64,000 nucleotides of DNA from positions 357 to 64,356 of the forward strand of contig CAXTPG010000011.1 in NCBI GenBank assembly GCA_964246015.1, written 5' to 3'. Positions 31,660 to 51,510 of this stretch are shown here, in pieces; the first letter of the stretch is position 1; every line of letters begins with the position of its first letter. Made by a program: the position numbers and the translations under genes. This DNA is from an uncultured Acetobacteraceae bacterium. GTDB taxonomy: Bacteria; Pseudomonadota; Alphaproteobacteria; Acetobacterales; Acetobacteraceae. The notes under the pieces are model-generated. The model was not told the DNA's origin. It was given only the letters and a program-made list of their open reading frames with translations, and ran no database searches.

Positions 31660-33026
31660 CCGAGGGATTGGCGGGGATCGCGGCCCGGCCCGTCGATGCG
31701 GGCACCCGGCGGCGGGCGGCGCTGCACGTGCTGGACTGGATCGGGTGCGCGTCGCTGGGGTTGCAATCCCCGGCCGGGGAGAAGCTGGCGCGGTTCGCGC
31801 GGGCGCAGGGGGCGGGGCCTTGCCTGGCGCTGGGCGCCGGGCGGTTGGCGCCGTCGGGGGCGATCCTGGTGAATGGCGGCATCGGGAACGTGCTGGAGAT
31901 GGACGACACGCACCGCGTGGCCATGCTGCATCCGGGACCCGTGGTGGTGCCGGCGGCGCTGGCGGCGGCGGAGCAGGTGGGGGCGTCCGGGCCCGCGCTG
32001 CTGGATGCGGTCGTGCGGGGCTACGAGGTCATGATCCGGATCGGGTGCGCGCTGGGGCCGGCGCATTACCGGATGTTCCACAACACGGCGACCTGCGCGC
32101 CGTTCGGGGCGGCGGCGGCGGTGGGGTCGTTGCTGCGGCTGTCGATCGGGGCGATGGTCGACGCGCTGGGGAATGCGGGGACGCAGGCGGGCGGGCTGTG
32201 GCAGTGCCGGCATTCGGAGACGATGACGAAGCAACTGCACAACGGCCGGGCGGCGCAGTCGGGATGGCTGAGCGCGATGCTGGCCGCGGACGGGTTCACG
32301 GGACCCCCGGCGATCCTGGAGGGGGAGCAGGGGTTCTTCGCCGCGCTGTGCCCGGATGCGACGCCCGAGGCGGTGCTGGCGGACGCCGAGGGCGCGTGGC
32401 GGATCGGGGAGGTGAGCTTCAAGCCCTACCCGGCGTGCCGGCATGCCCATGCGGTGATCGACGCGGCGCTGGCGGTGCGGGACGCGCATCCGGAGGCGGT
32501 GGGCGCGGCGGACGAGGTCGTCGTGACGACGTATGCCTCGGCGGTGGATTTCTGCGACGACGCGGCGCCCGACACGCCGGCGCGGGCGCGGTTCAGCCTG
32601 CAGCACGCGGCGGCGGTGACGCTGCTGGACGGGTCGCCGTGGCTGGCAGCGTTCGAGGCGGAGACGATCGGGCGGGCGGATGTGGCGGACCTGCGGCGGC
32701 GGGTCCGGCTGGTGGTCGACTCCGGATGGGGGCATGCGCAGCCGCCGCGCTTCCGGGCGGTGGTGGAGCTGCGGCGCGGGACGGCGGTGCTGGCCCGGGC
32801 GGAGGTGCTGGATGCCAAGGGGGATCCCGCGAACCCGATGCAGGTGACGGAGGTCGGGGCCAAGGCGGCGGCGTTGATGCAGGCCGCCGGGCTGTATGGC
32901 ACGGCCGCGGCGCGCATCCAGTCCGCCTGCGCCGCCCTCGTCGACGGGGGTGACGTCTGTGCCGTCACCGATGCGCTCGCCTCGCTTCGCCTGCCCAGCG
33001 CCGCGCCTCGTTTGAAGCACGCCTGA
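31635..33026 (+). CDS. MmgE/PrpD family protein (2-methylcitrate dehydratase-like)
   Basis: Internal ATG at 31635, overlapping the upstream gene by 25 nt. PrpD-family blocks are present: LDWIGCA, NG..G..LE.DD.H in the loop, and KPYP.C...H. Confidence 0.8.
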   Translation: MGGGLPTLTEGLAGIAARPVDAGTRRRAALHVLDWIGCASLGLQSPAGEKLARFARAQGAGPCLALGAGRLAPSGAILVNGGIGNVLEMDDTHRVAMLHPGPVVVPAALAAAEQVGASGPALLDAVVRGYEVMIRIGCALGPAHYRMFHNTATCAPFGAAAAVGSLLRLSIGAMVDALGNAGTQAGGLWQCRHSETMTKQLHNGRAAQSGWLSAMLAADGFTGPPAILEGEQGFFAALCPDATPEAVLADAEGAWRIGEVSFKPYPACRHAHAVIDAALAVRDAHPEAVGAADEVVVTTYASAVDFCDDAAPDTPARARFSLQHAAAVTLLDGSPWLAAFEAETIGRADVADLRRRVRLVVDSGWGHAQPPRFRAVVELRRGTAVLARAEVLDAKGDPANPMQVTEVGAKAAALMQAAGLYGTAAARIQSACAALVDGGDVCAVTDALASLRLPSAAPRLKHA

Positions 33027-33042
33027 CCCCGAGGAGGCTTTC

Positions 33043-34563
33043 ATGTCCCTGTCCCGCCGCCCGTTCCTGCTGGGGGGCGCCATGCTCCCGTTCCTGCGCA
33101 ACCCTGCCCGGGCCGCCCGCGTGCCCGGGCAGCTTACGTTCGGGTTGTCGACCTACCCGCCGAACCTCAACCCCTGGGCGAATACCGGGGCGTCGGGGGC
33201 GGGGGTGAAGCTGCTGATGAACCGTGGGCTGCTGTCCTACGACCCGAGCGGGGCGCTGCGGGGAGAGCTGGCCGAGAGCTGGGCGCGGGACGGGGAGAAC
33301 GGGTGGGTCTTCAAGCTGCGGGAGGCGGTGTTCCATAGCGGCCGGCCGGTGACGTCGGACGACGTGAAGTGGACGATCGAGCAGGTGGCGGGCGAACGGT
33401 CGACCGCATACATGAAGGACGAGTTCAGCCGGGTGTCCGCGGTCGAGACGCCGGATGCGCGGACGGTGCGGATCGTGACGTCGCAGCCGATCGCGACGCT
33501 GCCGCTGTGGATGGCGAGCACGTACATGCCGATCATGCAGCGGGGTTCGACGGCGGATGGTGCGCCGGGGATCGGGGCCGGCCCGTTCGCGCTGGCGGCG
33601 CAGGAGCGTGGGGTCTCGCTGGAGTTCAAGGCGTTCGACAAGTTCTACCGGCCGGGGCAGCCGCGGCTGAAGGCGGTTCGGTTCGTGGTGTATGCGGACG
33701 AGAACCTGCGGGTTTCGGCGCTGCGGGCGGGGGATGTCGATCTGATCGAGTATGTGCCGTGGCACGCGATGCAGACGATCGAGGACCAGCCGAACCTGGC
33801 GCTGCAGGGGACCTTCGGTCCCTTCATGTATCTGACGTTCAACGGGCGGACCGGGCCGTTCACCGATCCGCGGGTGCGGCTGGCGGTCGCGCACGCGGTC
33901 AAGCGGGACGAGATCGTGAATGCGGCCTTCGCGGGGCGGGGTGCGGCGCTGGAGGGGCTGCCGATTCCGCCGGACAGCCCGTTCTTCGACCAGGGGCGCA
34001 GCCGGGCCTGGGCCTATGACCCGGTTCGCGCCAAGGCGCTGCTGGCGCAGGCGGGCGTGCCCAACGGGTTTGCCTGCACGCTGCTGTCGACGGCGCAGTT
34101 CGGGATGATGAAGGACACGGCGGAGGTCGTGCAGCAGAACCTGGCGGCCATCGGGATCGCGGTCACGTTGAACCTGCCGGAGTGGGGCGGGCGGGTGACG
34201 GCGGGCAGCCGGGGGCAGTACGAGTTCTCGGTGGCGGGGACGGCGACCGACAACGGCGATCCGGACGGGCTGACGTCGTTGATCGACGGGTCGTTGCCGG
34301 CGTCGTTCCAGCGCAGCTTCGGGTTGCCGAACCCGGAGCTGACGGCGCTGCTGGGGCAGGGCCGGGCGGAGTTCGATGTGGCGAAGCGCCGGGCGATCTA
34401 TGAACGGGTGCAGGATATCGCGACGGAGAGCCCGAGCATCGTGGGGCTGGCATGGCGGTCGCAGGGGTATGCGATGGCGCGGGACGTGCGGGGGTTCAAG
34501 AACATGCCGGGCCCGCTGACGTTCTATTCGAACCTGACGCTGGACGAGGCGGAGATCGGGTGA
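33043..34563 (+). CDS. ABC transporter substrate-binding protein, family 5
   Basis: 506 aa. Signal MSLSRRPFLLGGAMLPFLRNPARA, followed by LAESW, F.LR..V.FH.G.P.TS.DV, and other family-5 blocks. Confidence 0.9.
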   Translation: MSLSRRPFLLGGAMLPFLRNPARAARVPGQLTFGLSTYPPNLNPWANTGASGAGVKLLMNRGLLSYDPSGALRGELAESWARDGENGWVFKLREAVFHSGRPVTSDDVKWTIEQVAGERSTAYMKDEFSRVSAVETPDARTVRIVTSQPIATLPLWMASTYMPIMQRGSTADGAPGIGAGPFALAAQERGVSLEFKAFDKFYRPGQPRLKAVRFVVYADENLRVSALRAGDVDLIEYVPWHAMQTIEDQPNLALQGTFGPFMYLTFNGRTGPFTDPRVRLAVAHAVKRDEIVNAAFAGRGAALEGLPIPPDSPFFDQGRSRAWAYDPVRAKALLAQAGVPNGFACTLLSTAQFGMMKDTAEVVQQNLAAIGIAVTLNLPEWGGRVTAGSRGQYEFSVAGTATDNGDPDGLTSLIDGSLPASFQRSFGLPNPELTALLGQGRAEFDVAKRRAIYERVQDIATESPSIVGLAWRSQGYAMARDVRGFKNMPGPLTFYSNLTLDEAEIG

Positions 34564-34566
34564 CGG

Positions 34567-35799
34567 CTATCGGGCGACGTGGGCCGGGATAAGGGCGCCG
34601 TCGGGCGTGGGGCCGGGGCGGCCGAAGGTGATCTGTGCGGCCCCGGCGAGCAGGCCGATGGCGACGGCGGATTGCCAGGCGCGGTCATAGGAGCCGAGTC
34701 CGTCGTAGATGAGGCCGCCGGCATAGGCGCCGATGAACGAGCCGACCTGGTGGCTGAAGAACGCGACCCCGGTGAGGGTCGCCATGAAGCGGACGCCGAA
34801 GGTTTCCGCGACCAGGCCGCCGACCAGGGGCACGACGCCGAGCCAGAGCAGGCCCATGGCGGCGGCGAAGGCGAGGGTCGTGGCCGGTGTGACGGGGGCG
34901 ACGAAGAAGGCGGCGATGGCAAGCGATCGGGCGATGTAGATCGCGCCGAGCAGGATGTGCTTCGGGTATCGGCCGCCGAGCCAGCCGAACAGCCATGAGC
35001 CGATGATGTTGCAGCCGCCGATGACCGAAAGGGCCTCGGCCCCCAGCATGGGGTCCATGCCGCACAGGGCGAGGAAGGTGGGGAGGTGGGTGGTGAGGAA
35101 GACGAGCTGCAGGCCGCAGACGAAGTAGGCGGCCGTCATCACCAGGAAGCTGCGGTTGCCGGCGGCGAGGTGCAGGGTGGCGCCGAGGGTGAGGGCGCCG
35201 GGGCCGACGCGCCGTGGGGCACGGTCCGCTCCGCCGGCCATGAAGGCGGCGGGGACCATGACGAGGCTGAGCACGACGAAGCACAGCAGGGCGGTGCGCC
35301 AGCCGTAGCCGCCGCCGATGGTCTGCACGAGCGGGGCGATGAACAGCGTACCGGCGGACCCGGCCGCGGAGACGATGCCGAGGACGAGGCTGCGCCGTGT
35401 GTCCGGAACGGCGCGTGCGGCGGCGCTCATCGCCATGGCGGAGGCGGTGCACGAAAGGCCGACGCCGATCATGAGGCCGAGGCCGATGGTGATGGCCAGC
35501 GGGCCCTGGGCGGTCGCGGCGATCCCGACGCCCGCGGCGAAGCAAAGGGCGCCGAGGATGGCGATGGGGCGGATGCCCCAGCGGTCGGCGGCGGCGCCGA
35601 TGAAGGGTTGGGTGACGCCCCAGACGATGTTCTGGAGCGCGACGGCAAAGGTGAAGTCGGCGGCGAGGAGGCCGAGGTCCTTCGTGATGGGACCGAGCAG
35701 GAGCCCGAGGGTCTGCCGCATGCCCATGCCGAGGCTGAGCATGAGCGACGCGCCGATGAGGATGGGAATGGCGCGGGGGGCGGGGCGGATCGCGTTCAT
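34567..35799 (-). CDS. MFS transporter
   Basis: 410 aa with 12 predicted hydrophobic segments. AADRWGIRP motif after TM2. Confidence 0.85.
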   Translation of the reverse strand: MNAIRPAPRAIPILIGASLMLSLGMGMRQTLGLLLGPITKDLGLLAADFTFAVALQNIVWGVTQPFIGAAADRWGIRPIAILGALCFAAGVGIAATAQGPLAITIGLGLMIGVGLSCTASAMAMSAAARAVPDTRRSLVLGIVSAAGSAGTLFIAPLVQTIGGGYGWRTALLCFVVLSLVMVPAAFMAGGADRAPRRVGPGALTLGATLHLAAGNRSFLVMTAAYFVCGLQLVFLTTHLPTFLALCGMDPMLGAEALSVIGGCNIIGSWLFGWLGGRYPKHILLGAIYIARSLAIAAFFVAPVTPATTLAFAAAMGLLWLGVVPLVGGLVAETFGVRFMATLTGVAFFSHQVGSFIGAYAGGLIYDGLGSYDRAWQSAVAIGLLAGAAQITFGRPGPTPDGALIPAHVAR

Positions 35800-35864
35800 G
35801 GGTGCAGCGTGCGCCGGGGTGGGAATGACGTCCAGTCCGTGACGGCCCAGGCGTCAGGCCCGTC

Positions 35865-36164
35865 CTACCTGCGGTAGCCGCGGCGGTAGTAGCCGCGGTC
35901 GCGTCCGCCGTCGCTGCTGGCGGCGATCGCGGCGATGCCGCCGATCAGGGCGGCGCCGACACCCACGGCCACGGCGGCGTTGGTGTTCGACTGCTGTTCG
36001 TAGGCGACCTGCTGCTGCGCCTGCGGCACCTGGGCGCAGGCGTACTGGTCGCCGGCGTAGCAGGCCTGCATGAGGGCGTTCAGCCAGCCCTGCGATTGCG
36101 AGGACGCAGCACAGCCGCCCAGCAGCGTGGCGCTGGCGGTGAGTACGAGCATGAGCTTGCGCAT
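35865..36164 (-). CDS. Small lipoprotein with a C-terminal glycine-zipper segment
   Basis: 99-aa internal ORF (ATG 36164-36162). Lipobox LLGGC, a Gln-rich middle, and AVAVGVGAALIGGIAAIAA followed by RGYYRRGYRR. Confidence 0.6.
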   Translation of the reverse strand: MRKLMLVLTASATLLGGCAASSQSQGWLNALMQACYAGDQYACAQVPQAQQQVAYEQQSNTNAAVAVGVGAALIGGIAAIAASSDGGRDRGYYRRGYRR

Positions 36165-36375
36165 GGGCCGGGACCTCGGGACGGGGCGGGTGGATCGCCG
36201 CCTGACGATAACTGTCCGGTACGAGTGTGGCGGGGTCAAGGCGGGACTAACCCGAAAGGCTGCGACGGCGTGCCCGCAAACCCGCTTGCGCCCACCCGGC
36301 CCCCCGCCGAAGATGCCGGGACCGGCCGCCAGAGCCGGAACGAGGAAACCCCGTCGTGCAGCGCCCGAGCGCCCC

Positions 36376-37368
36376 ATGCTGACCTACCTCATGCGGCGGT
36401 TCCTCATCGCCGTGCTCACCTGCCTCGTGATCTCGCTCGCCACCTTCATCATCGTCCGCCTGCCCCCCGGCGACTTCGTCGATAGCTACATCGCCAACCT
36501 CGCCAGCTCCGGCAGCACCGTGTCGATCGAGCAGGCCCAGGCCCTCCGCCGCGACCTCGGTCTCGATCGCCCGGTGCTCGTCCAGTACGGCCTGTGGATG
36601 ATCAACGTCGTCCAGGGCAATTTCGGCGTCTCGATGCTGTTCAAGCGCCCGGTGGCCGAAGTCATCGGGGACCGCCTCTGGCTCACCGTGGCGGTCTCCG
36701 TCTCCGCCCTCATCCTCACCTGGGCCCTCGCCTTGCCCATCGGCATCTACTCCGCCGTCCGCCAATACTCCTGGGGCGACTACGCCGCGACCACGCTGGG
36801 GTTCATCGGCCTTGCCGTGCCCAACTTCCTCCTCGCCCTCATCCTCATGTGGCTCGGCTTCCGCTACCTGGGCATGAGCGTCGGGGGGCTGTTCTCCCCC
36901 GAATACACGCAGGCCCCCTGGGACGCGGCCCGGTTCTGGGACCTCGCCAAGCACCTCCCCCTCCCCGCCTGCGTCCTCGCCTTCGCCGGCACCGCCCAGC
37001 TCATCCGCATCATGCGCGCAAACCTGCTGGACGAGCTGCGCCGCCCCTACGTCGTCACCGCCCGCGCCAAGGGCCTCTCCGAAACCCGCCTGGTGCTCAA
37101 ATACCCGGTCCGCGCCGCGCTCAACCCCTTCGCCAGCTCCATGGCCTACATCTTCCCGTCCCTGGTGTCCGGCAGCATCATCGTCTCCCTCGTCCTCGGC
37201 CTGCCCACCGTCGGCCCGCTGCTGCTGCAGGCCCTTCTGGCCCAGGACATGTACCTCGCCGGCACCATCGTCCTGCTGCTCGGCGTGCTCACCGTCGCCG
37301 GCACCCTCGTCTCCGACCTCGTCCTCATGTGGGTGGAACCCCGGCTCCGCCTCGGCGGCCGGGCATGA
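36376..37368 (+). CDS. ABC transporter permease (DppB/OppB type)
   Basis: Internal ATG at 36376, beginning MLTYLMRRFLIAVLTCLVISLATFIIVRLPPGD, the canonical family start. Contains RAKGLSE in the EAA loop. Confidence 0.9.
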   Translation: MLTYLMRRFLIAVLTCLVISLATFIIVRLPPGDFVDSYIANLASSGSTVSIEQAQALRRDLGLDRPVLVQYGLWMINVVQGNFGVSMLFKRPVAEVIGDRLWLTVAVSVSALILTWALALPIGIYSAVRQYSWGDYAATTLGFIGLAVPNFLLALILMWLGFRYLGMSVGGLFSPEYTQAPWDAARFWDLAKHLPLPACVLAFAGTAQLIRIMRANLLDELRRPYVVTARAKGLSETRLVLKYPVRAALNPFASSMAYIFPSLVSGSIIVSLVLGLPTVGPLLLQALLAQDMYLAGTIVLLLGVLTVAGTLVSDLVLMWVEPRLRLGGRA

Positions 37369-38474
37369 GCGCCGCCGCCATCGCGGCCGACGACCGTTTC
37401 GCCCAGGCCACGCAGCTCCAGCTCACCTGGTGGCGCTTCCGCCGCCACAAGCTCGCCGTCGCCAGCATGATCCTCATCATCCTCTTCTACCTCGTCGCCG
37501 TCTTCGCCGACTTCCTCGCCGTCGCGGACCCCCAGGCCACCGACGCCCGCCGCAGCTACATCCCGCCCCAGCCCATCAACATCATGGCCGAAGGCGCCCC
37601 CTTCCTCTCCGTCCCCGGCCTGAAAGGCGTCCGCGACCCCCGGACCTTCAAACTCGCCTACACCCCCGACCCGGCCCGCAAGCTCCGCGTCACCCTCTTC
37701 GCCCCCGGCTACGAATACCGCCTCCTCGGCCTCATCCCCGCCAACATCCACCTGCTGGGCGTCGAGGGCGGCGGACCCGCCGACGGCATCTTCCTCCTCG
37801 GCACCGACCAGCTCGGCCGCGACCTCTACTCCCGACTCGTCGTCGCCACCCGGACCTCGCTCTCCATCGGCCTCGCCGGCGTCGCCCTCAGCCTCACCCT
37901 CGGCATCCTCCTCGGCGGCCTCTCCGGCCTCTACGGCGGCGTCGTCGACACGGTCATCCAGCGCATCATCGAGGTCATCCGCTCCATCCCAACCATCCCC
38001 CTCTGGATGGCGCTGGCCGCCGCCCTCCCCAACACATGGAGCGTCACGCAGGTCTACCTCGCCATCACCATCATCATCTCCCTCATCGGCTGGACCGACC
38101 TCGCCCGCGTCGTGCGCGGCCGCTTCCTGGCGCTGCGCGAAGAGGACTTCGTCATCGCCGCCGAACTCGCCGGCGCCAGCCGCATGCGCATCATCCTGCG
38201 CCACATGCTCCCGTCCTTCGCCAGCCACGTCATCGCCGCCACCAGCCTCGCACTGCCCACCATGATCGTCAGCGAAACCTCGTTGAGCTTCCTCGGCCTC
38301 GGCCTCCGCCCCCCCGCGATAAGCTGGGGCATCCTGTTGCAGGACGCGCAGAACGTGCAGGTCCTGGCCGGCGCGCCCTGGCTGCTGCTGGCCGCCATCC
38401 CCGTCGTCTTCGTCATCCTCGCCTTCAACTTCCTCGGCGACGGCCTCCGCGACGCGGCCGACCCCTATGGCTGA
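37365..38474 (+). CDS. ABC transporter permease (DppC/OppC type with a long N-terminal periplasmic loop)
   Basis: Internal ATG at 37365 (ATGA overlap). LGTDQLGRDLYSRL motif, and the A.GAS...I..H..P loop. Confidence 0.9.
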   Translation: MSAAAIAADDRFAQATQLQLTWWRFRRHKLAVASMILIILFYLVAVFADFLAVADPQATDARRSYIPPQPINIMAEGAPFLSVPGLKGVRDPRTFKLAYTPDPARKLRVTLFAPGYEYRLLGLIPANIHLLGVEGGGPADGIFLLGTDQLGRDLYSRLVVATRTSLSIGLAGVALSLTLGILLGGLSGLYGGVVDTVIQRIIEVIRSIPTIPLWMALAAALPNTWSVTQVYLAITIIISLIGWTDLARVVRGRFLALREEDFVIAAELAGASRMRIILRHMLPSFASHVIAATSLALPTMIVSETSLSFLGLGLRPPAISWGILLQDAQNVQVLAGAPWLLLAAIPVVFVILAFNFLGDGLRDAADPYG

Positions 38475-39465
38475 CACCATCCTGTCCATCCGCGCCCTGC
38501 ACGTCGAGTTCGGCGCCGCCCACTACACCGTTCAGGCGCTGGACGGCATCAGCCTCGACCTGCGCCGCGGCCGCGTCCTGGGCGTCGTCGGCGAAAGCGG
38601 CTGCGGCAAGAGCGTCACCGCCCGCGCAGCCCTCCGCATCCTCGACCATCCCGGCCGCATCGTGTCCGGCCAGGTCATCCTCGACCCCGGCACCCCCGAA
38701 GCGACCGACCTCGCCGCCCTCCCGCAATCCAGCCCCCGGCTGCGACAAATCCGCGGCGGCCGCATCGGCCTCATCTTCCAGGAGCCGATGACCGCCCTCA
38801 GCGCCCACTACACCGTCGGCAACCAGATCATCGAGGCCATCCGCGTCCACACCCCCCTCTCCCGTGCCGCGGCCCGCGCCCGCGCCATCGAACTCCTGAA
38901 CGACGTCGGCATCCCCCGCCCCGAAACCCGCATCGACGCCTATCCCTTCCAGCTCAGCGGCGGCCTGCGCCAACGCGTCGGCATCGCCCTCGCCCTCGCC
39001 GGCGACCCCGACATCCTCATCGCCGACGAACCCACCACCGCACTCGACGTCACCACCCAGGCGCAGATCCTCGCCCTCCTGCGCCGCCTCCAGCGCGACA
39101 AGGGCATCGCCCTCATGCTCATCACCCACGACATGGGCGTCATCGCGGAGATGGCCGACGACGTCGCCGTCATGTACCTGGGCCGCGTGGTCGAATCCGC
39201 GCCCGTCCACACCCTGTTCGCAGCACCCCGCCACCCCTACACCCGCGCCCTGCTGCGCTCCGTCCCCAGCATCCTCGCCGCCCCCCGCCAGCGCCTCGCC
39301 ACCATCGGCGGCGCCGTGCCCCACCCCGCCGCCCGCCCGTCCGGCTGCGCGTTCCACCCCCGCTGCCCCGACGCCCTCCCGGGTCTCTGCACCTCGGCGC
39401 CCCCCACCCCCCTCCCGGGCGGCACCGAAGGCGCAAGCTGCTTCCGCCTTCCGGAACTCGCATGA
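38467..39465 (+). CDS. ABC transporter ATP-binding protein (DppD/OppD type)
   Basis: 332 aa. Walker A GESGCGKS, signature LSGGLRQRV, Walker [12 protein letters not shown], and the oligopeptide C-terminal Cys/His domain (GCAFHPRCP). Confidence 0.9.
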
Positions 39466-46206: not shown

Positions 46207-47037
46207 GTGGATCAAGCCCTGACGGACCGCCCGCCCGCACCCGCCCAGGCCGCCCCGCCCGACCCCGCGGCACGCGCAGCCGCGATCCTCGCCGCCTTCC
46301 ACACCGCCCTCGACGGCCCGACCGCCTTCACCCTCGCCTATCAGCCCCGGCTCGACATCCGCACCGCCCGCTGGACCGCGACCGAGGCCCTGCTGCGCTG
46401 GACCGACCCCGTCCTGGGGCCGCTTTCCCCCGCCGAGTTCATTCCCCTGCTCGAACACCATCGCCTGATCCGCCCCCTGACAAGGTGGGTCGTTCGCCGG
46501 GCCCTGGCCGACCACGTCGCCTGGACCGCCCTCGGCCACACGCTCGCCGTCTCCATCAACCTCTCCGCCCAGGACCTCGACGACCCGGCCTTCCCGCGCT
46601 GGCTGATCGAGGCGGCTGCCCGCGCCGGCGCCGACCCGGCCCAGGTCGAGCTGGAGATCACCGAAACCGCCAGGCTCCAGGAAGACGGCCCCGCCGCCGC
46701 AACGCTCGCGCGCCTTGCCCAGGCCGGGTTCGGCATCGCCATCGACGACTTCGGCGCCGGCTACAGCAACCTGCTCGCCCTGCGCGACGTCCCCGCCCGC
46801 ATCCTCAAGCTCGACCGCGGCCTCAGCCGATCGCTCGACACCAACCAGCGGGACCGCGTCATCGTCCGGTCCGTCATCGGCATGGCCCACGCCCTCGGCC
46901 TCATTGTCGTCGCCGAAGGCGTCGAGACGGCCCCGATCCTCGGCCTGCTGACCGAATGGGGCTGCGACCAGGCCCAGGGATGGCACATCGCCCGCCCCAT
47001 GCCGCTCGACCGCCTCCTCGCCCTCGCGCCCCATTGA
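46207..47037 (+). CDS. Stand-alone EAL-domain protein (predicted c-di-GMP phosphodiesterase)
   Basis: 276 aa with a GTG start. The catalytic set is present: EALLRW, SINLS (Asn), ELEITE, DDFGAGYS, KLD, AEGVE, QG. No sensor or GGDEF domain. Confidence 0.85.
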   Translation: MDQALTDRPPAPAQAAPPDPAARAAAILAAFHTALDGPTAFTLAYQPRLDIRTARWTATEALLRWTDPVLGPLSPAEFIPLLEHHRLIRPLTRWVVRRALADHVAWTALGHTLAVSINLSAQDLDDPAFPRWLIEAAARAGADPAQVELEITETARLQEDGPAAATLARLAQAGFGIAIDDFGAGYSNLLALRDVPARILKLDRGLSRSLDTNQRDRVIVRSVIGMAHALGLIVVAEGVETAPILGLLTEWGCDQAQGWHIARPMPLDRLLALAPH

Positions 47038-47044
47038 CCGACAC

Positions 47045-50000
47045 TTGACCACCCAGCGCACCGCCCGCCTCTTCGTCGCATCGCCGGGCGATGTCGGCCC
47101 CGAACGCCTCCGCCTCCAGTACATCGCCGACCGGCTCTCCGACGAACCCGGCGCACCCATCCGGTTCGAGGTCGTCCGGTGGGAGGAACGCCACTACCGC
47201 GCCAACCGCGGCTTCCAGGAACAGATCCCCGAACCCGCGTCCTGCGACATCGTCGTCGTCGTCTTCGGCAACGAACTCGGCACCCCCCTGGATGGCGACT
47301 TCAAGCACCGCATGCCCGGCGGCCAGCCGTATCCCAGCGGCACCGCCTACGAACTGCTTTCCGCCATCGACGCGGCCGACGCCAGCGGAAAGGGCGTTCC
47401 CGACGTCTTCGTCTACCGCAAGGCCGCCGTGCAGGCCTACACCGTCGACGAGGACGACGCCTACGACAGGGCGCGCGCCGCCCGAAAACGGCTCGACGCC
47501 TTCCTGCAGCACTCCTTCCGCACCGGCTCCGGCGGATGGCGGCGAAGCTACGTCCCCGTCGTCTCGACCGACGATTTCGGCGCTCGGGTCGAATCCATGC
47601 TCCGCGCCTGGGTCCGCGAACAGGGCGCCGAGGCCCTCGACCTCCGCTGGCGCATCGACCAGCAGGGATCCCCGTTCCGGGGCCTCGAAACCTTCGACGC
47701 AAGGCACGCCGCTGTCTTCTTCGGCCGCAACCAGAAGGTCCAGACCGCCACCGCCGCCCTCGTCGAGGCCGGCAACAGCCCCGCCCGCCACCCCTTCCTT
47801 CTCGTCGTCGGACCCAGCGGCGCCGGCAAGTCCTCCCTCGTTCGCGCCGGCGTCGTCCCGCGCGTCACGATGCCCGGCGCCGTTCCCGGCATCGACGCCT
47901 GGCGCGTCGCCGTCATGCGCCCCGGCGCCGCCGCCACACCCTTCGACTCCCTGGCCACCGCCCTCTTCCGCGACGGCAGCCCCGACCAGGACCCCGGCGG
48001 CTTCGGACCCGCCCTTCCCGAACTCGCCCAAGGCCTCTACGCGGACCCCGCCACCCTCGCCACCGCCCTCCGCCTCGATGCCGACGTCCGCGCCGCCCCC
48101 ATCATCGCCGCCCTGGACACCGCCGCAGCCGCCGAGGCCCGCCGCCGCGGCATCGAACATCCCTTCCGCACCGACCTCGTCCTCCTCGTCGACCAACTCG
48201 ACGAGGTCTTCGCCGCCGACGTCCCCGAACCCGAACGACGGGACTTCGGCCGCCTTCTGCTCGCGCTCGTCCGCAGCCGCCGGGTCTGGATCATCGCCAC
48301 CCTCCGCGCCGACCTCGTCGCCCGCATGATCGCCGACCCCGTCTTCCTTGCCCTTGCCGACAGGGGCGCCGAGTACAAGCTCGCCTCCCCCGGCGAAGCC
48401 GAACTCCGCGAGATCCTCGGCGACTCCGCCGCGGCGGCCGGCCTCGCCTACGACAACGACCCCGAACTCGGCCGCACCCTCGACGAGCAGCTTCTTCTCG
48501 ACGCAAGCGGCGCCGACGCCCTGCCGCTGCTGCAGTTCGCACTGAAGCAGCTCTTTGAAAAACGCGAGACGCTCGACCCGGCAACCGGCGCCGTCGCCCG
48601 CCTCACCTTCGCCGCCTATCGCGGGTTCGGCGGCCTCGACGGCGCCATCGACAGCGTCGGCGAGCAGGCGATCGCATCCGCCGCCCGCGAACTGGGCGAG
48701 GCCACGATCGAGACGGCACTGCCCCGCATGCTCCGCCGCATGGCCGCCGCCGTCCAGGAAGACGCGGGCGCCCTCGCCGGCACCATGGCCCTCACCCTCC
48801 GCGGCGCAACCCTCGACCACGCCGCCCCTGACGCCCCCTCCCGCCGCCTCGCCGGGATGCTCGTCGACGCCCGCCTGCTCGTCACCGACCGCGGCCCCGG
48901 CGGCGGCATGCTCCGCGTCGCCCATGAGCGCGTCATGACGAGCTGGCGCCGCGCCCGCGCCGTCGCGACCGGCCAGCGCGACTTCTTCCGCATCGCCCGC
49001 GACGTGGAACGCCAGCGCCAGCGCTGGGCCGACGGCGCGGAACGCCGCGAGCTGTTGCTGGAAGAAGGCGCACCCATCCAGGACGCCCAGCGCGTCCTCC
49101 GCGACTTCGGCGACGACCTGAGCCCCGCCACCCGCGACTACGTCGGACTCAGCCTGCGCCGTGCCCGCTGGTCCCGCCGCCGCCGCCGGGCCGCGATCGC
49201 CACCCTCTGCGCAACCGCCATGGTCGCGACCGTCGCCGCGTTCCTCGCCCGCAGCGTCGGCGAACGCTCCGAACGCAACTTCGAGGCGGCCCGAGGCGCC
49301 GCCGACCAGCTCGTCGCCGCCCTTCCCCAGCAGCTTCGGAACCAGCAAAACGTCAGCTTCCTCACCGTCGACACCGTCCTCCACGTCGTCGACACGCTTC
49401 TGACCACCATCGAAACCCAGCTCGCGGCCCCGCAGGGCGTCGTGCAGCACCAGGTCGAGGCCGTCGCCGCCCGCATGGGCGGCCTTTTTCCCGGTGCCGG
49501 CGCCGCGGCCGCATCCCTCGCCCGCATCCGCCGCAACCGTGCCGACATGCTCTACGAGTTCGCCGAAACCTACCACCAGGCCGCCGACAACCTCGCCCGC
49601 GCCCAGGACGCCGCCGAACGCAGCCTTGCCCTCTACACCGCCCTCCGCGACGAGGGCGACGTCTCCCCGGGCCTCGCCTGGCGGTTGCACCTCGTCCGCA
49701 TGGCGCTGGCCGATCTTCTCCGCGACGCCCTCAGACGCCCTCCGCCCCCGCGCCCACCGCCGCCCCAGGCCTATGCCGGCGTCATGCAGCACCTCACCCT
49801 TGCCCACGATATCGCCCGCGACCTCGTCGCCCGTGCCCCGGAAAACCTCGCCTTCGCCGCCGGCCTCTCCAAGGCCGTCACCCGCCAGGGCGACGTCCTC
49901 ATGCTCCAGAACGACCCGGCCGCCGCCGAACGCGCCTACGCCGAGCTGCAATCCCTCGCCCTCGCCGCATACCGCCGCGCGCCCGACGACATCCCCACCC

Positions 50001-50602
50001 TCCGCGAGCTGGGCTGGAGCTACCGCAAGCGCGGCGAAGCCCTCGCCCGCCCGGGCCCCAGCGCCCCCGCCCTCATCGAATTCGGCCGAGAGCTCTGCCT
50101 CCGCCGCGACGTCCTCCGCCGCAAGGGCGACGACCGCCTCCTCGACGAAGACCTCGGCTTCAGCCTCGCCAAGCTCGCCGAGGAGCGCGCCCGCCTCGGC
50201 GACCTCCAGGGCGCCCGCATCGCCTACTCCGTCGCCCTCGACCGCCGCACCGCCCTCGCTGACGGCGACTCCTCCAGCCGCAACTACGCCGAGACCGCAG
50301 CCCTCGCCATCGAACGCCTCCGCGACCTCTTCGACCGAATGGGCGACCGCCAGCGCGCCTTCGACTTTGCCGCCGCCGCCGCCGAGCGCCGCACCGGCAT
50401 CGCCCGCAAATGGACCGACCCCCGCTCTGCCGACTCCCTCGCCGCTGCGCAGACCCGTCTGAAGTCCCTGTCCGACCCTCCCCTCACCCCGACCGCCTCC
50501 TTTGAACAGGAACGCGCCTGGGCCACGTCCCACGCCGCCCCCGCCCTCGACGAGTGGGCCGCCGCCTGCACTGCCGAGCTCTCCCCCTACGGCGGCCCGT
50601 GA
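47045..50602 (+). CDS. Membrane-spanning STAND-type P-loop NTPase with a DUF4062/TIR-like N-terminal domain and a helical-repeat C-terminal domain
   Basis: 1185 aa, with a TTG start 7 nt after the EAL stop. N-terminus: RLFVASPGDVGPER...CDIVVVVFGNELG...SGTAYELLSAI....PDVFVYRK. NTPase: PFRGLETFDARHAAVFFGRN, Walker A VVGPSGAGKSSLVRAGVVP (47804-), Walker B LVLLVDQLDEVF, and sensor-like VWIIATLRADL and LRVAHERVMTSWRR. One TM helix AAIATLCATAMVATVAAFLA (49190-49249) is preceded by RRARWSRRRRR. Confidence 0.8.
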   Translation: MTTQRTARLFVASPGDVGPERLRLQYIADRLSDEPGAPIRFEVVRWEERHYRANRGFQEQIPEPASCDIVVVVFGNELGTPLDGDFKHRMPGGQPYPSGTAYELLSAIDAADASGKGVPDVFVYRKAAVQAYTVDEDDAYDRARAARKRLDAFLQHSFRTGSGGWRRSYVPVVSTDDFGARVESMLRAWVREQGAEALDLRWRIDQQGSPFRGLETFDARHAAVFFGRNQKVQTATAALVEAGNSPARHPFLLVVGPSGAGKSSLVRAGVVPRVTMPGAVPGIDAWRVAVMRPGAAATPFDSLATALFRDGSPDQDPGGFGPALPELAQGLYADPATLATALRLDADVRAAPIIAALDTAAAAEARRRGIEHPFRTDLVLLVDQLDEVFAADVPEPERRDFGRLLLALVRSRRVWIIATLRADLVARMIADPVFLALADRGAEYKLASPGEAELREILGDSAAAAGLAYDNDPELGRTLDEQLLLDASGADALPLLQFALKQLFEKRETLDPATGAVARLTFAAYRGFGGLDGAIDSVGEQAIASAARELGEATIETALPRMLRRMAAAVQEDAGALAGTMALTLRGATLDHAAPDAPSRRLAGMLVDARLLVTDRGPGGGMLRVAHERVMTSWRRARAVATGQRDFFRIARDVERQRQRWADGAERRELLLEEGAPIQDAQRVLRDFGDDLSPATRDYVGLSLRRARWSRRRRRAAIATLCATAMVATVAAFLARSVGERSERNFEAARGAADQLVAALPQQLRNQQNVSFLTVDTVLHVVDTLLTTIETQLAAPQGVVQHQVEAVAARMGGLFPGAGAAAASLARIRRNRADMLYEFAETYHQAADNLARAQDAAERSLALYTALRDEGDVSPGLAWRLHLVRMALADLLRDALRRPPPPRPPPPQAYAGVMQHLTLAHDIARDLVARAPENLAFAAGLSKAVTRQGDVLMLQNDPAAAERAYAELQSLALAAYRRAPDDIPTLRELGWSYRKRGEALARPGPSAPALIEFGRELCLRRDVLRRKGDDRLLDEDLGFSLAKLAEERARLGDLQGARIAYSVALDRRTALADGDSSSRNYAETAALAIERLRDLFDRMGDRQRAFDFAAAAAERRTGIARKWTDPRSADSLAAAQTRLKSLSDPPLTPTASFEQERAWATSHAAPALDEWAAACTAELSPYGGP

Positions 50603-50649
50603 CCGCGGGACCGGTTCCCCGCCCGTCCCGCCTGGGGCATCATGCCGCC

Positions 50650-51510
50650 ATGCCCCTCCCCCGCCGCCGCTTCCTGTTCGCCGCAGCCTGCGCCGCCTGC
50701 GCCCCAACCGCCCTGCGCGCCGCCACTGCGCCCGACGCGCTCGCAACCGTCCCCGCCCCAACCCTCACCCCCGCCGAGCAGGAGCGCCACCGCATCCTCA
50801 TGCTCCTCGCCATGGCCCTCACCCACGACGAATGGGGCATCAACCCGGAGCGCCCGGACCTCCTTCGCGACTATGCCGCCGCGGCACCCGGACGCTCCTT
50901 CCGTCCCTATGTCGGCCACAATATCGGCGCCCTTCTCGTCGACGCCGCCGGGGGCATCGTCGGCTTCCAGCGCAACCGCAACGTCCAGCTCAACAGCACG
51001 CTGGAACACGCCGAGGCCCGCGCCGTCCGCATCGCCATCGCCGACGCCAACGCGCGCCGCCGCCGCGCCGGCCTCCGTCTCAACGACTACGCGACCCTGC
51101 TTCGCGGCCACCGCGTCTACACGACGCTCGAACCCTGCGCCCAGTGCGCCGGCATCATGACGCTCGCGACGCTCGACGCCGTCGTCTTCCCCCAGGACGA
51201 CCCCGGCCAGCACCACGTCGCCGCCATCCTCTACAACCTCAACGACGGCCTCGGCCCCCGCCGCGGCCCGGCCCCCTTGCGCGCCGCCTTCATGCCGCAG
51301 GCCGCCGCCCTCGCCGACGCCTACGCCGCCTTCGCCGCCGCCGCCCCCCCGGGCGGACGCACCGGCCTCACCTCCTTCCTCGAGACCGTCGCCGCCTGGC
51401 GCATCTTCGGCACCGCCGTCCAGGACCTCGCGACGATGCAGCCCGAGGACCCCGCCAACCGCCAGAACCTGGCTGCCGCACGCGCGTTCCGCAACCGCCC
51501 GCGCCTATAG
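50650..51510 (+). CDS. CDA-fold (cytidine/deoxycytidylate-type) zinc deaminase with a Tat-type signal peptide
   Basis: Internal ATG at 50650 of ORF 50554..51510. Begins MPLPRRRFLFAAACAACAPTALRAATAP (twin-Arg plus h-region plus AxA). Zinc motifs: LEHAEARA (H120, E122) and TLEPCAQCAG (C163, C166). Confidence 0.75.
   Translation: MPLPRRRFLFAAACAACAPTALRAATAPDALATVPAPTLTPAEQERHRILMLLAMALTHDEWGINPERPDLLRDYAAAAPGRSFRPYVGHNIGALLVDAAGGIVGFQRNRNVQLNSTLEHAEARAVRIAIADANARRRRAGLRLNDYATLLRGHRVYTTLEPCAQCAGIMTLATLDAVVFPQDDPGQHHVAAILYNLNDGLGPRRGPAPLRAAFMPQAAALADAYAAFAAAAPPGGRTGLTSFLETVAAWRIFGTAVQDLATMQPEDPANRQNLAAARAFRNRPRL

Follow-up and report, generated by a model that had tools for sequence, protein, structure and literature searches.

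The window analysed here, a 64,000-nt stretch of DNA from an uncultured Acetobacteraceae bacterium, carries on its plus strand a gene for a large STAND protein that is flanked by an EAL gene on one side and a deaminase gene on the other (Table 1). The codon-position GC content of the STAND ORF is 0.77/0.53/0.90 in a window of 72% GC, which indicates that it is a real gene. A longer minus-strand ORF overlaps it (46901-50761, 1286 aa) and was rejected as a high-GC shadow ORF because of its codon-position GC (0.89/0.55/0.76) and its low-complexity translation, rich in G, A and R. Homologs of the STAND protein number 1037 at E ≤ 1e-5, and most of these are full-length proteins of approximately 1200 aa. 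Several STAND paralogs occur per genome, and members of the family occupy conserved chromosomal positions in several lineages.

Table 1. Positions in the window of the STAND gene, its modules and the flanking genes
Feature	Position	Strand	Details
Stand-alone EAL (c-di-GMP phosphodiesterase-type) gene	46207..47037	+	276 aa; Pfam EAL E 2e-65
Whole STAND gene	47045..50602	+	TTG start, 1185 aa; DUF4062-like head, nSTAND1 NTPase, one TM helix, TPR solenoid
N-terminal module	47045..47674	+	aa 1-210: DUF4062/TIR-like alpha/beta core aa 5-126 and two long helices
nSTAND1 NTPase module	47672..49042	+	aa 210-666; PF20703 match
Juxtamembrane Arg cluster RRARWSRRRRR	49157..49189	+	aa 705-715, predicted cytoplasmic side
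Predicted single TM helix AAIATLCATAMVATVAAFLA	49190..49249	+	aa 716-735, predicted N-in/C-out
Predicted periplasmic TPR-like solenoid	49250..50599	+	aa 736-1185, ~450 aa, including PPPPRPPPP insert aa 899-907
CDA-fold (TadA/MafB19-like) zinc deaminase	50650..51510	+	286 aa; predicted exported
Deaminase twin-arginine signal	50650-50730	+	aa 1-~27

The DUF4062/TIR-like head and the nSTAND1 NTPase

An earlier note on this DNA had quoted a series of motifs, and all of them were located in the STAND translation when their positions were checked. In the head these are RLFVASPGDVGPER (aa 8-21), CDIVVVVFGNELG (aa 67-79), SGTAYELLSAI (aa 98-108) and PDVFVYRK (aa 119-126); in the NTPase they are FFGR (aa 225-228), GPSGAGKSSLVRAG (aa 256-269), VDQLDEVF (aa 382-389), ATLRADL (aa 418-424) and AHE (aa 626-628). 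The two remaining motifs, RRARWSRRRRR and PPPPRPPPP, lie in the C-terminal half at aa 705-715 and aa 899-907.

The head of the window protein scores below the gathering threshold of the DUF4062 profile PF13271 (14.4 bits against a cutoff of 24.7, E 0.046, aa 9-81). Among 33 aligned N-terminal domains from close full-length relatives, which are 34-52% identical to the query, 23 match PF13271 at E ≤ 0.01, the best at 3.6e-6, and the head of P0074 exceeds the gathering score (26.2 bits against 24.7) over profile positions 1-81 of 82. Through such close full-length relatives the query head is, on sequence grounds, transitively homologous to DUF4062. The AlphaFold2 (AF2) model of the head is a beta-alpha Rossmannoid with a pLDDT of 90.1. 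When this model was compared with the BFVD viral library using Foldseek, the top match was a phage deoxyribosyltransferase (E 1.5e-6, TMq 0.49), and CAP12 TIR and NDT folds were also among the matches. Against the PDB, Foldseek returned generic flavodoxin-like and GTPase matches with TM-scores of at most 0.40, with RPS4/RRS1 TIR (~0.4) mixed among them. The assignment of the head as a DUF4062/TIR-like Rossmannoid, made previously from the letters of the sequence, is therefore supported by the profile matches in 23 of the 33 members, by the Rossmannoid model and by the recurrence of TIR and NDT folds; similarity to DUF4062 was found through the relatives, and a tentative similarity to TIR and nucleoside-transferase-like folds in the model, with the query's own PF13271 score remaining sub-threshold.

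Residues F10, S13, P14, D16, E20, R21, Y51, Q58, G99 and E103 of the head are invariant in the family, and W46 and E47 are each at least 90% conserved across the head alignment. E103 lies in the sequence YPSGTAYE and is placed by the AF2 model at the N-terminus of the helix that follows the third strand; this residue is a candidate for the catalytic Glu. DUF4062 domains were recently shown to be TIR-like NADases (bioRxiv 10.64898/2026.05.01.722283; 10.64898/2026.06.25.731849). Going by the published motif order, F10, W46-E47 and E103 of the query would parallel F11, W51-E52 and E87 of Eva01, and E103 would likewise parallel the catalytic Glu of KpSwz (E97) and of TEP1 (E1008). We give an NAD+-cleaving output of the STAND protein an even chance.

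The module that follows matches the nSTAND1 profile PF20703 over positions 1-376 of 379 (E 1.2e-71, 242.8 bits against a cutoff of 27.1). The proposal of a NACHT-like STAND NTPase thus stands with respect to the STAND NTPase, but the clade is nSTAND1 and not NACHT. Both nucleotide-binding motifs are intact: Walker A is GPSGAGKS (aa 256-263, nt 47810-47833) and Walker B is LLVDQLDE (aa 380-387). The Walker A lysine, which had been given as K261, is K262.

A conserved predicted membrane helix and a TPR solenoid

The predicted TM helix consists of 20 uncharged residues with a Kyte-Doolittle value of 2.11, and its N-terminal flank contains 8 Arg. Its summed Hessa-scale dG is -0.43, compared with +7.55 for the next best segment, so that it is the sole hydrophobic segment in the protein. 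Of 116 long homologs, 114 have a corresponding segment (dG ≤ 0.5 in 101 of the 116), as do 37 of 54 independent genome copies; in some subclades the segment is weak, with a dG of 2.8-3.7. The sequence of the segment varies, while its hydrophobicity, its uncharged length of 20-27 residues and the preceding Arg cluster are kept (114/116 homologs). Furthermore, the flanks of the helix differ in charge across the family, with a mean K+R count of 4.85 on the N-side versus 2.62 on the C-side among the 114 homologs, and the N-side is the more positive in 106 of them. The single hydrophobic helix had been recognised earlier with exact coordinates, as had the positive-inside bias that follows from RRARWSRRRRR, and both are now seen to be family-wide. 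The conservation of helix and charge bias supports an N-in/C-out orientation. On this basis of hydrophobicity and charge statistics, the STAND protein is probably a single-pass type II inner-membrane protein with its C-terminus outside the cytoplasm.

The domain beyond the helix was modelled by AF2 with a pLDDT of 84.4 as 18 helices arranged in hairpin repeats; the TM stretch in the same model has low confidence (pLDDT ~50-60). Foldseek against the PDB matched this domain to LGN/Pins, OGT and consensus or designed CTPR structures at E 1e-6 to 1e-5, with 94 matches at E ≤ 1e-3. Pfam TPR repeats were not detected in aa 646-1185 of the query at E ≤ 10, and TPR_12/TPR_10 match this region in many homologs. 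The C-terminal helical repeats of the earlier note can accordingly be described, by model and Foldseek, as a TPR superhelix, and their periplasmic placement is a prediction. The domain contains a conserved pair of cysteines, C1018 (in CLRR) and C1175, which are both present in 50 of 74 sequences and both missing in 15 (Fisher p 4e-9). This covarying pair is compatible with a periplasmic disulfide.

Four relatives with a TIR_2 domain (P0258, P0270, P0249 and P0266) have a different arrangement, in which a canonical TIR is followed by a juxtamembrane linker, an RRR cluster, a TM helix and TPRs, with no NTPase. The CxRR...CW cysteines are also kept in the TM-TPR module of these proteins. The TM helix and TPR module is shuffled onto canonical TIR heads, and its occurrence behind canonical TIR_2 domains indicates that the module serves TIR-type heads directly.

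Gene partners and genomic context

The true start of the deaminase gene is the ATG at 50650, which gives a protein beginning MPLPRRRFLFAAACAAC with a twin-arginine signal. The N-terminus, MPLPRRRFLFAAACAACAPTALRA followed by A, contains an S/T-R-R-x-F-L type motif, an h-region and an AxA-like site; no match to Pfam TAT_signal was reported for this protein. The S/Q-R-R motif and h-region are found in 5 of 6 deaminases (the window protein and 4 of 5 orthologs inspected), the start of the fifth ortholog being probably miscalled, and some deaminases have an LxGC lipobox. The enzyme matches PF00383 (E 7e-11, 42.4 bits against a cutoff of 25) and PF14437 (E 5e-7), and its HAE and PCAQC motifs are conserved, with RAE in one ortholog. 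The description of the neighbour as a Tat-exported deaminase is thus borne out as to its CDA fold and its twin-arginine signal, with export itself predicted.

A gene for an enzyme exported by signal prediction adjoins the STAND gene in all 9 of the nearest homologs examined. In 8 of these, in otherwise different neighbourhoods, the enzyme is the deaminase, and in the ninth the deaminase slot is taken by an S1/P1 nuclease bearing a Sec signal. Among 5.8 billion proteins the deaminase family is represented by only 42, almost all of them on STAND-bearing contigs. No deaminase was present at 80 genome loci of more distant STAND family members, which makes it a clade-specific rather than a family-wide partner. 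The earlier speculation that the STAND protein and the deaminase are linked is therefore backed by a gene pairing that is conserved in the nearest clade, and contact between the two is a prediction. We consider a functional link between the STAND protein and the exported enzyme likely.

The EAL gene, whose translation contains the EAL, DDFGAGYS, KLD, EGVE and QG motifs, is a likely operon partner, since 7 nt separate its stop codon from the start of the STAND gene. An EAL gene is found directly upstream of the STAND gene in 3 of the 9 nearest homologs (P0004, P0007 and P0009), with a 2-nt gap or a 4-nt overlap. Together with the window this amounts to 4 of 10 loci with EAL coupled to STAND, and EAL is absent from the other 6. 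Queuosine and 7-deazaguanine genes lie near the STAND gene in two loci.

The surroundings in the window are housekeeping genes (ABC transporter, M24 peptidase, PrmA and UvrD), with no defence island. Among the PADLOC-DB v2 models, the STAND protein had only a P-loop-local match to mad3 (E 0.0024, 19 residues) and neither the EAL protein nor the deaminase had any; the NCBIfam defence models gave no match. We regard a defence or conflict role of the cassette as a tentative reading, with slightly less than an even chance.

A possible periplasm-facing receptor

Our preferred model is an NLR-like, single-pass N-in/C-out STAND receptor that faces the periplasm, triggers cytoplasmic NAD+ cleavage and works with an exported enzyme, a reading we would put at about one in two. 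On the cytoplasmic side, the DUF4062 head would be joined to the nSTAND1 NTPase acting as an oligomerisation switch, and outside the inner membrane the ~450-aa TPR solenoid would be the likely sensor for a ligand or partner. The cassette, small and conserved, would combine the STAND protein with an exported nucleic-acid or nucleobase enzyme (the Tat-signal deaminase here, the Sec-signal S1/P1 nuclease in one relative) and, as an optional third member, a translationally coupled cytoplasmic EAL phosphodiesterase. The periplasmic TPR domain would bind the co-exported enzyme, or a product or substrate complex that this enzyme forms on nucleic acid of foreign or extracellular origin. Clustering across the membrane, driven by the ligand, would then let the NTPase modules oligomerise and bring the DUF4062 heads together, which would switch on NAD+ hydrolysis via E103 and lead to growth arrest or abortive infection. 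In this model we infer the topology, the NADase activity, the TPR-enzyme interaction and the immune role of the cassette. With the TPR sensor cut off from the NTPase by the membrane, there would be no fold-back autoinhibition, and activation would have to proceed in another way than in Apaf-1 or Avs.

The same components could instead serve signalling outside immunity. In this unlikely alternative, the exported enzyme would process a nucleobase, nucleotide or eDNA cue from outside the cell or from the periplasm, and the cassette would sense that cue. The EAL protein and the DUF4062 head would then tune second-messenger and NAD metabolism, as might happen in biofilms or in responses to nutrients, with no cell killing. 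The translational coupling of EAL to STAND in 4 of 10 loci, the housekeeping surroundings without known defence genes, the conserved chromosomal positions in several lineages and the nearby queuosine/7-deazaguanine genes in two loci would all fit such a role. However, EAL is missing from 6 of the 10 loci, the swap of deaminase for nuclease and the several paralogs per genome are typical of conflict systems, and the DUF4062/TIR heads of STAND NTPases that have been tested in published work are effectors of cell death or defence. Partner swapping in a retained slot, as seen for effectors of conflict systems, would also suit an arrangement that runs in the opposite direction, with the periplasmic TPR domain as a dock rather than a sensor and a cytoplasmic cue causing release or activation of the exported deaminase or nuclease, the real effector, against nucleic acid entering the periplasm. 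TPR solenoids are classic protein-docking modules, and the partners are nucleic-acid-type enzymes bearing export signals. We nevertheless judge this improbable, more so than a signalling role: in STAND proteins, sensing is normally left to the C-terminal repeats while the N-terminal domain acts as effector, an effector-type DUF4062 head is already there, no outward relay of NTPase state by a single TM helix is known in this family, and the TM-TPR module is kept in distant relatives without such an enzyme.

Finally, the hydrophobic segment might not span the membrane but form a peripheral anchor or a helix that is buried or amphipathic, which would leave a conventional cytoplasmic STAND-TPR sensor and an exported enzyme that is unrelated or merely co-regulated. 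In favour of this, the query helix is rich in Ala and Thr and its dG of -0.43 is marginal, the segment is weaker in some subclades, and the AF2 pLDDT is low there (~50-60). Against this, a varied sequence with kept hydrophobicity, length and Arg cluster (114/116) would be expected of a TM anchor rather than of a helix packed in a protein core. The segment is also the sole candidate in ~1200 residues and recurs behind TIR heads, and conserved neighbouring genes encode export signals; we consider a non-spanning segment very unlikely.

The preferred receptor model can be compared with several known systems. The nSTAND1 conflict-system NTPases of Kaur et al. 2021 (PMC8195603) are built from the same three parts, an effector head, an NTPase and super-secondary-structure repeats, and share the near end-to-end PF20703 match. 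The text consulted describes them as cytoplasmic and mentions neither a conserved single TM helix separating the NTPase from the repeats nor an exported deaminase as partner. Swarozyc (KpSwz) and Evangelion (Eva01) are single-gene antiphage systems (bioRxiv 10.64898/2026.05.01.722283; 10.64898/2026.06.25.731849) that, going by motif order, appear to resemble the window head in the N-terminal aromatic motif, the W-E motif, the Glu after the third strand and activation by oligomerisation, the last predicted for the window head. They are, however, short, soluble, cytoplasmic proteins with a small auxiliary sensor domain for phage portal or replication intermediates, while the window head, with its sub-threshold PF13271 score, sits on an 1185-aa predicted membrane-spanning STAND protein. 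Similarly, the metazoan DUF4062-NACHT-WD40/TPR proteins TEP1, NWD1, NWD2 and NPHP3 have the same order of DUF4062 head, STAND NTPase, helical region and repeat sensor, and NPHP3 uses TPRs as the window protein does; these proteins differ in having a NACHT rather than an nSTAND1-clade NTPase, in lacking a TM helix and in being entirely cytoplasmic.

The antiphage STANDs Avs and bNACHT follow the same effector-NTPase-repeat sensor logic with ligand-induced oligomerisation, although their characterised members detect phage proteins in the cytoplasm and no exported enzyme is described as a partner of any of them. In the supplementary discussion of their preprint, Kibby et al. (10.1101/2022.07.19.500537) had already raised the possibility that bacterial NACHT proteins with TM regions detect signals within the membrane or in the periplasm; the TM types in that study have multiple TM regions, in contrast to the one in the window protein. 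Toll-like receptors offer a functional analogy only. In them, solenoid repeats outside the cytoplasm are joined by a single TM helix to a TIR-type domain inside, and the four TIR_2 relatives described above have exactly this layout, as TIR-TM-TPR. No homology of the ectodomains is implied, as Toll-like receptors carry LRRs where TPRs are found here, and the window protein has a STAND NTPase between head and TM helix. The pairing of an apparently outward-facing STAND protein with an exported enzyme suggests putative Toll-like periplasmic sensing in bacteria.

The STAND gene and the domains of its product

The window has a GC content of about 72% and an ORF scan returned long open reading frames in many frames; codon-position GC was used as the criterion to separate real genes from shadow ORFs. 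The plus-strand STAND ORF displayed the expected GC3-rich pattern (0.77/0.53/0.90). A longer candidate antisense to it, at 46901-50761 on the minus strand (1286 aa), was rejected as a high-GC shadow ORF, with codon-position GC of 0.89/0.55/0.76 and a Gly/Ala/Arg low-complexity translation. Every motif quoted in the earlier note was located at its position in the STAND translation, and the hydrophobic helix reported at 49190-49249 corresponds to residues 716-735, directly preceded by RRARWSRRRRR; the Walker A lysine, numbered K261 there, is residue K262. Searches yielded 1037 homologs of the STAND protein, mostly about 1200 aa and full-length. A PADLOC scan returned no model for the STAND protein and no informative family for it or the deaminase. 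An NCBIfam scan gave no informative family for either and matched the EAL gene only to generic EAL-domain models, far below cut-offs. Scanning 45.9-51.8 kb for promoters and terminators yielded nothing informative.

Residues 210-666 match the Pfam family nSTAND1 (PF20703, E 1.2e-71), with the model covered nearly end to end. Previously the NTPase had been assigned to a NACHT-like STAND clade. The assignment to STAND NTPases stands and the NACHT-like part does not, since the match is to nSTAND1, which Kaur et al. 2021 (PMC8195603) define as a STAND clade distinct from NACHT. Judged by this profile, the NTPase of the window protein genuinely belongs to nSTAND1.

The N-terminal 207 aa, searched alone against Pfam, gave a sub-threshold DUF4062 match (E 0.046). 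The heads of homologs share 34-52% identity with the window head, and across 33 aligned heads the residues F10, S13, P14, D16, E20, R21, Y51, Q58, G99 and E103 are invariant, with W46 and E47 nearly so. Because 23 of these 33 heads match PF13271 at E<=0.01, and the head of one homolog, P0074, exceeds the gathering score (26.2 bits vs 24.7, over profile positions 1-81 of 82), we conclude at the level of sequence that the window STAND head is a divergent DUF4062. DUF4062 domains have been described as TIR-like NADases with a catalytic Glu (E97 in KpSwz of Swarozyc, E1008 in metazoan TEP1, E87 in Eva01 of Evangelion), an N-terminal aromatic motif and a W-E motif (bioRxiv 10.64898/2026.05.01.722283; 10.64898/2026.06.25.731849). 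This motif order is paralleled in the window head by F10 ... W46-E47 ... E103, where E103 is the candidate catalytic residue.

A sequence search of the PDB with the N-terminal profile found nothing significant (best E 0.47). AlphaFold models residues 1-210 with confidence (pLDDT 90.1) as a beta-alpha-beta Rossmannoid, E103 being located where the helix that follows strand 3 begins. Foldseek comparison of this model with the PDB was non-specific and not decisive alone, returning generic three-layer alpha/beta matches (TM <=0.40) with the RPS4/RRS1 TIR domains at ranks 4, 13 and 46, mixed with GTPases and flavodoxins. Against viral models, a deoxyribosyltransferase came out on top (E 1.5e-6), and the list also holds a CAP12/Pycsar TIR, NDT, CMP hydrolase and blasticidin M. 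Taken together, the head model and both sets of matches support a head of the TIR/NDT superfamily. The DUF4062/TIR-like N-terminus proposed in the earlier note thus agrees with the family-level PF13271 matches, the Rossmannoid model and the TIR/NDT folds among its matches.

Predicted membrane helix, TPR domain and TIR-bearing sisters

Topology was judged from family statistics, using a Kyte-Doolittle scan, flank charges and the Hessa biological scale. In 114 of 116 long homologs the Kyte-Doolittle scan detected one hydrophobic segment at about residues 685-780 and essentially none elsewhere. Its core holds 20-27 uncharged residues, variable in sequence and conserved in character, and a segment lies at the equivalent place in 37/54 genome-derived copies, an independent set. 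Among the 114 homologs, the 15 residues N-terminal of the segment contain on average 4.85 K+R and 0.37 D+E, and the 15 residues C-terminal of it 2.62 K+R and 2.11 D+E, the N-side being the more positive in 106. The Hessa sum is -0.43 kcal/mol for the window segment and +7.55 for the second-best stretch of the protein; the corresponding medians among the homologs are -0.64 and +6.3, with segment values <=0.5 in 101/116. The single helix with a positive-inside charge bias, first described for the window protein, is therefore a family-wide trait. The STAND protein has no N-terminal signal peptide, and its relatives are almost all from Alphaproteobacteria, i.e. diderms. Since the NTPase needs cytoplasmic ATP and an N-terminal signal peptide is absent, N-in/C-out with a periplasmic TPR domain is the only consistent topology predicted.

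The helical repeats recognized earlier in the C-terminal region can now be described as a TPR-like array. Residues 696-1185 were modeled by AlphaFold as an all-helical hairpin array (pLDDT 84.4) that matches LGN/Pins, OGT and designed consensus TPRs (94 Foldseek matches at E<=1e-3), and Pfam TPR_12/TPR_10 domains occur in the corresponding region of many homologs. The domain after the helix usually contains exactly two cysteines, in the window protein C1018 (in CLRR) and C1175. Both are present in 50 and neither in 15 of 74 sequences (Fisher p 4e-9, kinship uncorrected), a pattern that would fit a periplasmic disulfide. The PPPPRPPPP insert (49739-49765) is peculiar to the window protein, being absent from aligned relatives, and is modeled as a loop between two predicted helices (fragment residues 202-210).

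A profile of the TM helix plus TPR region was searched against 1.84 billion representatives, giving 63,359 matches, mostly TPR proteins. Among the best 150, which were inspected, are proteins in which the profile start, i.e. the TM region, aligns after a short head. In four of these (P0258, P0270, P0249 and P0266) the head is a canonical TIR_2 domain (E 1e-9 to 1e-22), followed by a window-type juxtamembrane linker, Arg cluster, TM helix and TPR array, and an NTPase is absent. P0270 and P0258 retain the CxRR...CW cysteines that are typical of the window subtype. The module has been shuffled between heads, and the TM-TPR sensor would thus appear to serve TIR-type heads directly, which supports the DUF4062 head as an output domain. 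The TIR-TM-solenoid layout of the four sisters may be regarded as analogous to that of Toll-like receptors.

The cassette and its predicted exported enzymes

The genes on either side of the cassette run in the opposite direction; the upstream one encodes a luciferase-like monooxygenase and the downstream one an M24 peptidase. A tblastn search with the window neighbours at 80 genome loci of more distant family members, collected with the head profile, turned up neither a deaminase nor an adjacent EAL gene. The reading drawn from these loci, that the STAND-deaminase association is not conserved, was overturned by the contigs of the nine nearest STAND homologs (39-45% identity over full length).

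Genes of the window cassette, and gene order at the loci of its nine nearest STAND homologs
Gene or homolog (locus)	Coordinates	Orientation or gene order
EAL gene	46207-47037	same direction as STAND and deaminase genes
STAND gene	47045-50602	same direction as EAL and deaminase genes
Deaminase gene	50650-51510	same direction as EAL and STAND genes
P0002 (L081)		STAND, deaminase
P0004 (L082)		EAL, STAND, deaminase
P0007		EAL, STAND, deaminase
P0009 (L085)		EAL, STAND, deaminase
P0011 (L086)		STAND, then convergent deaminase
P0012 (L088)		STAND, deaminase
P0013 (L087)		STAND, deaminase
P0018 (L090)		STAND, deaminase
P0016 (L089)	L089:5392-6297 (+) (nuclease)	STAND, S1/P1 nuclease downstream in deaminase slot

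Because the flanking genes vary from locus to locus, simple synteny does not account for the cassette, which is a mobile unit of two or three genes. The deaminase orthologs share 46-56% identity and keep HAE and PCAQC, apart from the one at L087:8686-9600, in which RAE replaces the catalytic, zinc-binding HAE and which may be inactive. An S/Q-R-R motif with a hydrophobic stretch is present at the N-terminus of the window deaminase and 4/5 orthologs, some with an LxGC lipobox. The S1/P1 nuclease beside P0016 has a predicted Sec signal, with cleavage between MNLWWSTLLAALLAAVPLGEALA and WGTSGH, before the Trp. Trp is the expected mature N-terminus of S1/P1 nucleases. This substitution suggests that exported nucleic-acid enzymes are interchangeable in the STAND-adjacent slot.

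The deaminase family is small, comprising 42 proteins among 5.8 billion, many of which lie on contigs that agree in length with STAND contigs. Reverse look-up from its members recovered a STAND gene adjoining the P0137 deaminase. At the P0150 deaminase locus (L093:6001-11600), two deaminase copies flank a STAND gene that appears to be frameshifted or fragmented, its pieces measuring 181, 586 (nSTAND1) and 257 aa. At the P0132 deaminase locus (L091:6001-7734) there is no STAND gene, and the deaminase neighbours a 185-aa PF10137 (CAP12/Pycsar-type TIR-like) protein, to which hhalign found no similarity of the STAND head profile. In the window's clade, then, a predicted membrane-spanning STAND protein consistently has an exported enzyme of nucleic-acid or nucleobase type as its partner, an independent observation in keeping with a TPR domain outside the cytoplasm.

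De novo clustering of neighbours at the 80 distant loci recovered only lineage synteny (GST, SDR, BipA) and, in 17, a gene for a DUF1353 protein of about 200-240 aa with a signal peptide, 130-200 nt upstream on the same strand as the STAND gene (including L003, L007, L008, L022, L029, L030, L034, L035, L038, L042, L062 and L073). The DUF1353 protein is another predicted exported neighbour of a membrane-bound STAND protein. A trypsin-PDZ (HtrA-like) protease gene lies ~35 nt downstream of the STAND gene in the Roseiarcus-type loci L013, L027, L033 and L039.

Several side observations were made. Queuosine/7-deazaguanine genes are located at most a few kb from the cassette at two unrelated loci, L081:11549-14792 (TGT, QueF, QueG) and L086:1657-2791 (QueC), and this closeness may be coincidental, as may the position of a Rap1a (T6SS immunity-type) gene immediately before the STAND gene in L086. 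Elsewhere in the window, GC skew flips abruptly from ~+0.2 to ~-0.25 within 33000-39000. Skew amplitudes are unusually high across the whole window (left +0.06 to +0.30, right -0.05 to -0.27), independent of gene orientation. The cumulative-skew maximum at the switch, about 36200-36300, resembles a replication terminus; no match to a simple dif-like pattern was obtained near it.

A proposed receptor facing the periplasm

We propose that the predicted periplasmic TPR domain would bind the exported enzyme, or what that enzyme makes, and that clustering across the membrane would permit nSTAND1 oligomerization. DUF4062 heads gathered in this way could hydrolyze NAD+, with E103 as the candidate catalytic residue, in the manner of Swarozyc and TEP1, whose activity increases with oligomerization (bioRxiv 10.64898/2026.05.01.722283). 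Activation would occur by ligand-induced clustering and not by relief of autoinhibition, because a sensor on the far side of the membrane would be unable to fold back onto the NTPase.

Other readings have to be weighed. The protein might signal without killing the cell, in a role linked to the EAL gene, which, where present in the nearest loci, abuts the STAND start or overlaps it by 2-4 nt; the other nearest loci have no EAL gene. Alternatively, it might act as an inside-out scaffold for a periplasmic effector. Finally, the hydrophobic helix might not span the membrane. The segment is much weaker in the Roseiarcus-type subclade (dG 2.8-3.7 in L013, L027 and L039, the three copies, out of four counting L033, in which the best segment is at the usual position). 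The family as a whole displays a charge bias and Hessa sums compatible with a spanning helix.

With a periplasmic sensor as the preferred reading, a broader proposal, which we hold tentatively and consider rather doubtful as a whole, is that these proteins form an alphaproteobacterial class of periplasm-facing innate-immune receptors merging Toll-like and NLR-like logic. In such receptors a TPR ectodomain outside the cytoplasm would be joined through a single TM helix to a cytoplasmic STAND NTPase that bears a TIR-like NADase head or, in the sisters, to a canonical TIR directly behind the helix. The ectodomain and the dedicated exported deaminase or nuclease, whose activity and partnership are predicted, would together sense foreign nucleic acid or invaders that are still in the periplasm, or attack them there, leading to NAD+ depletion across the membrane.

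The overall module order of the window STAND protein mirrors that of the metazoan DUF4062-NACHT proteins TEP1, NWD1 and NPHP3. In the literature we found no described conserved DUF4062-nSTAND1-TM-TPR family, no pairing of such a STAND with a Tat-signal deaminase or Sec-signal nuclease, and no description of the TIR-TM-TPR sisters; full-text searches for a DUF4062/TIR-(STAND)-TM-TPR layout returned only general remarks on TM-containing NACHT proteins. To our knowledge, the cytoplasm is the sole site of action of those STAND/NLR-like immune sensors of bacteria (Avs, bNACHT) and DUF4062/TIR NADases that have been characterized. Phage genomes, predatory bacteria, secreted toxins and eDNA arrive in the periplasm before they reach the cytoplasm. 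A preprint (10.1101/2022.07.19.500537) has already raised the possibility that bacterial NACHT proteins with TM regions sense periplasmic signals.

The pairing with a rare Tat-signal deaminase, or an S1/P1 nuclease in one locus, provides a concrete and testable partner. The layout of Toll-like receptors has a prokaryotic counterpart in the TIR-TM-TPR sisters, which bears on the origin of such architectures. If the sensor is periplasmic, a different activation would be needed, transmembrane clustering in contrast to relief of fold-back autoinhibition, and a conserved family with a repeat sensor beyond the inner membrane would, if true, extend NLR-type sensing to the periplasm.
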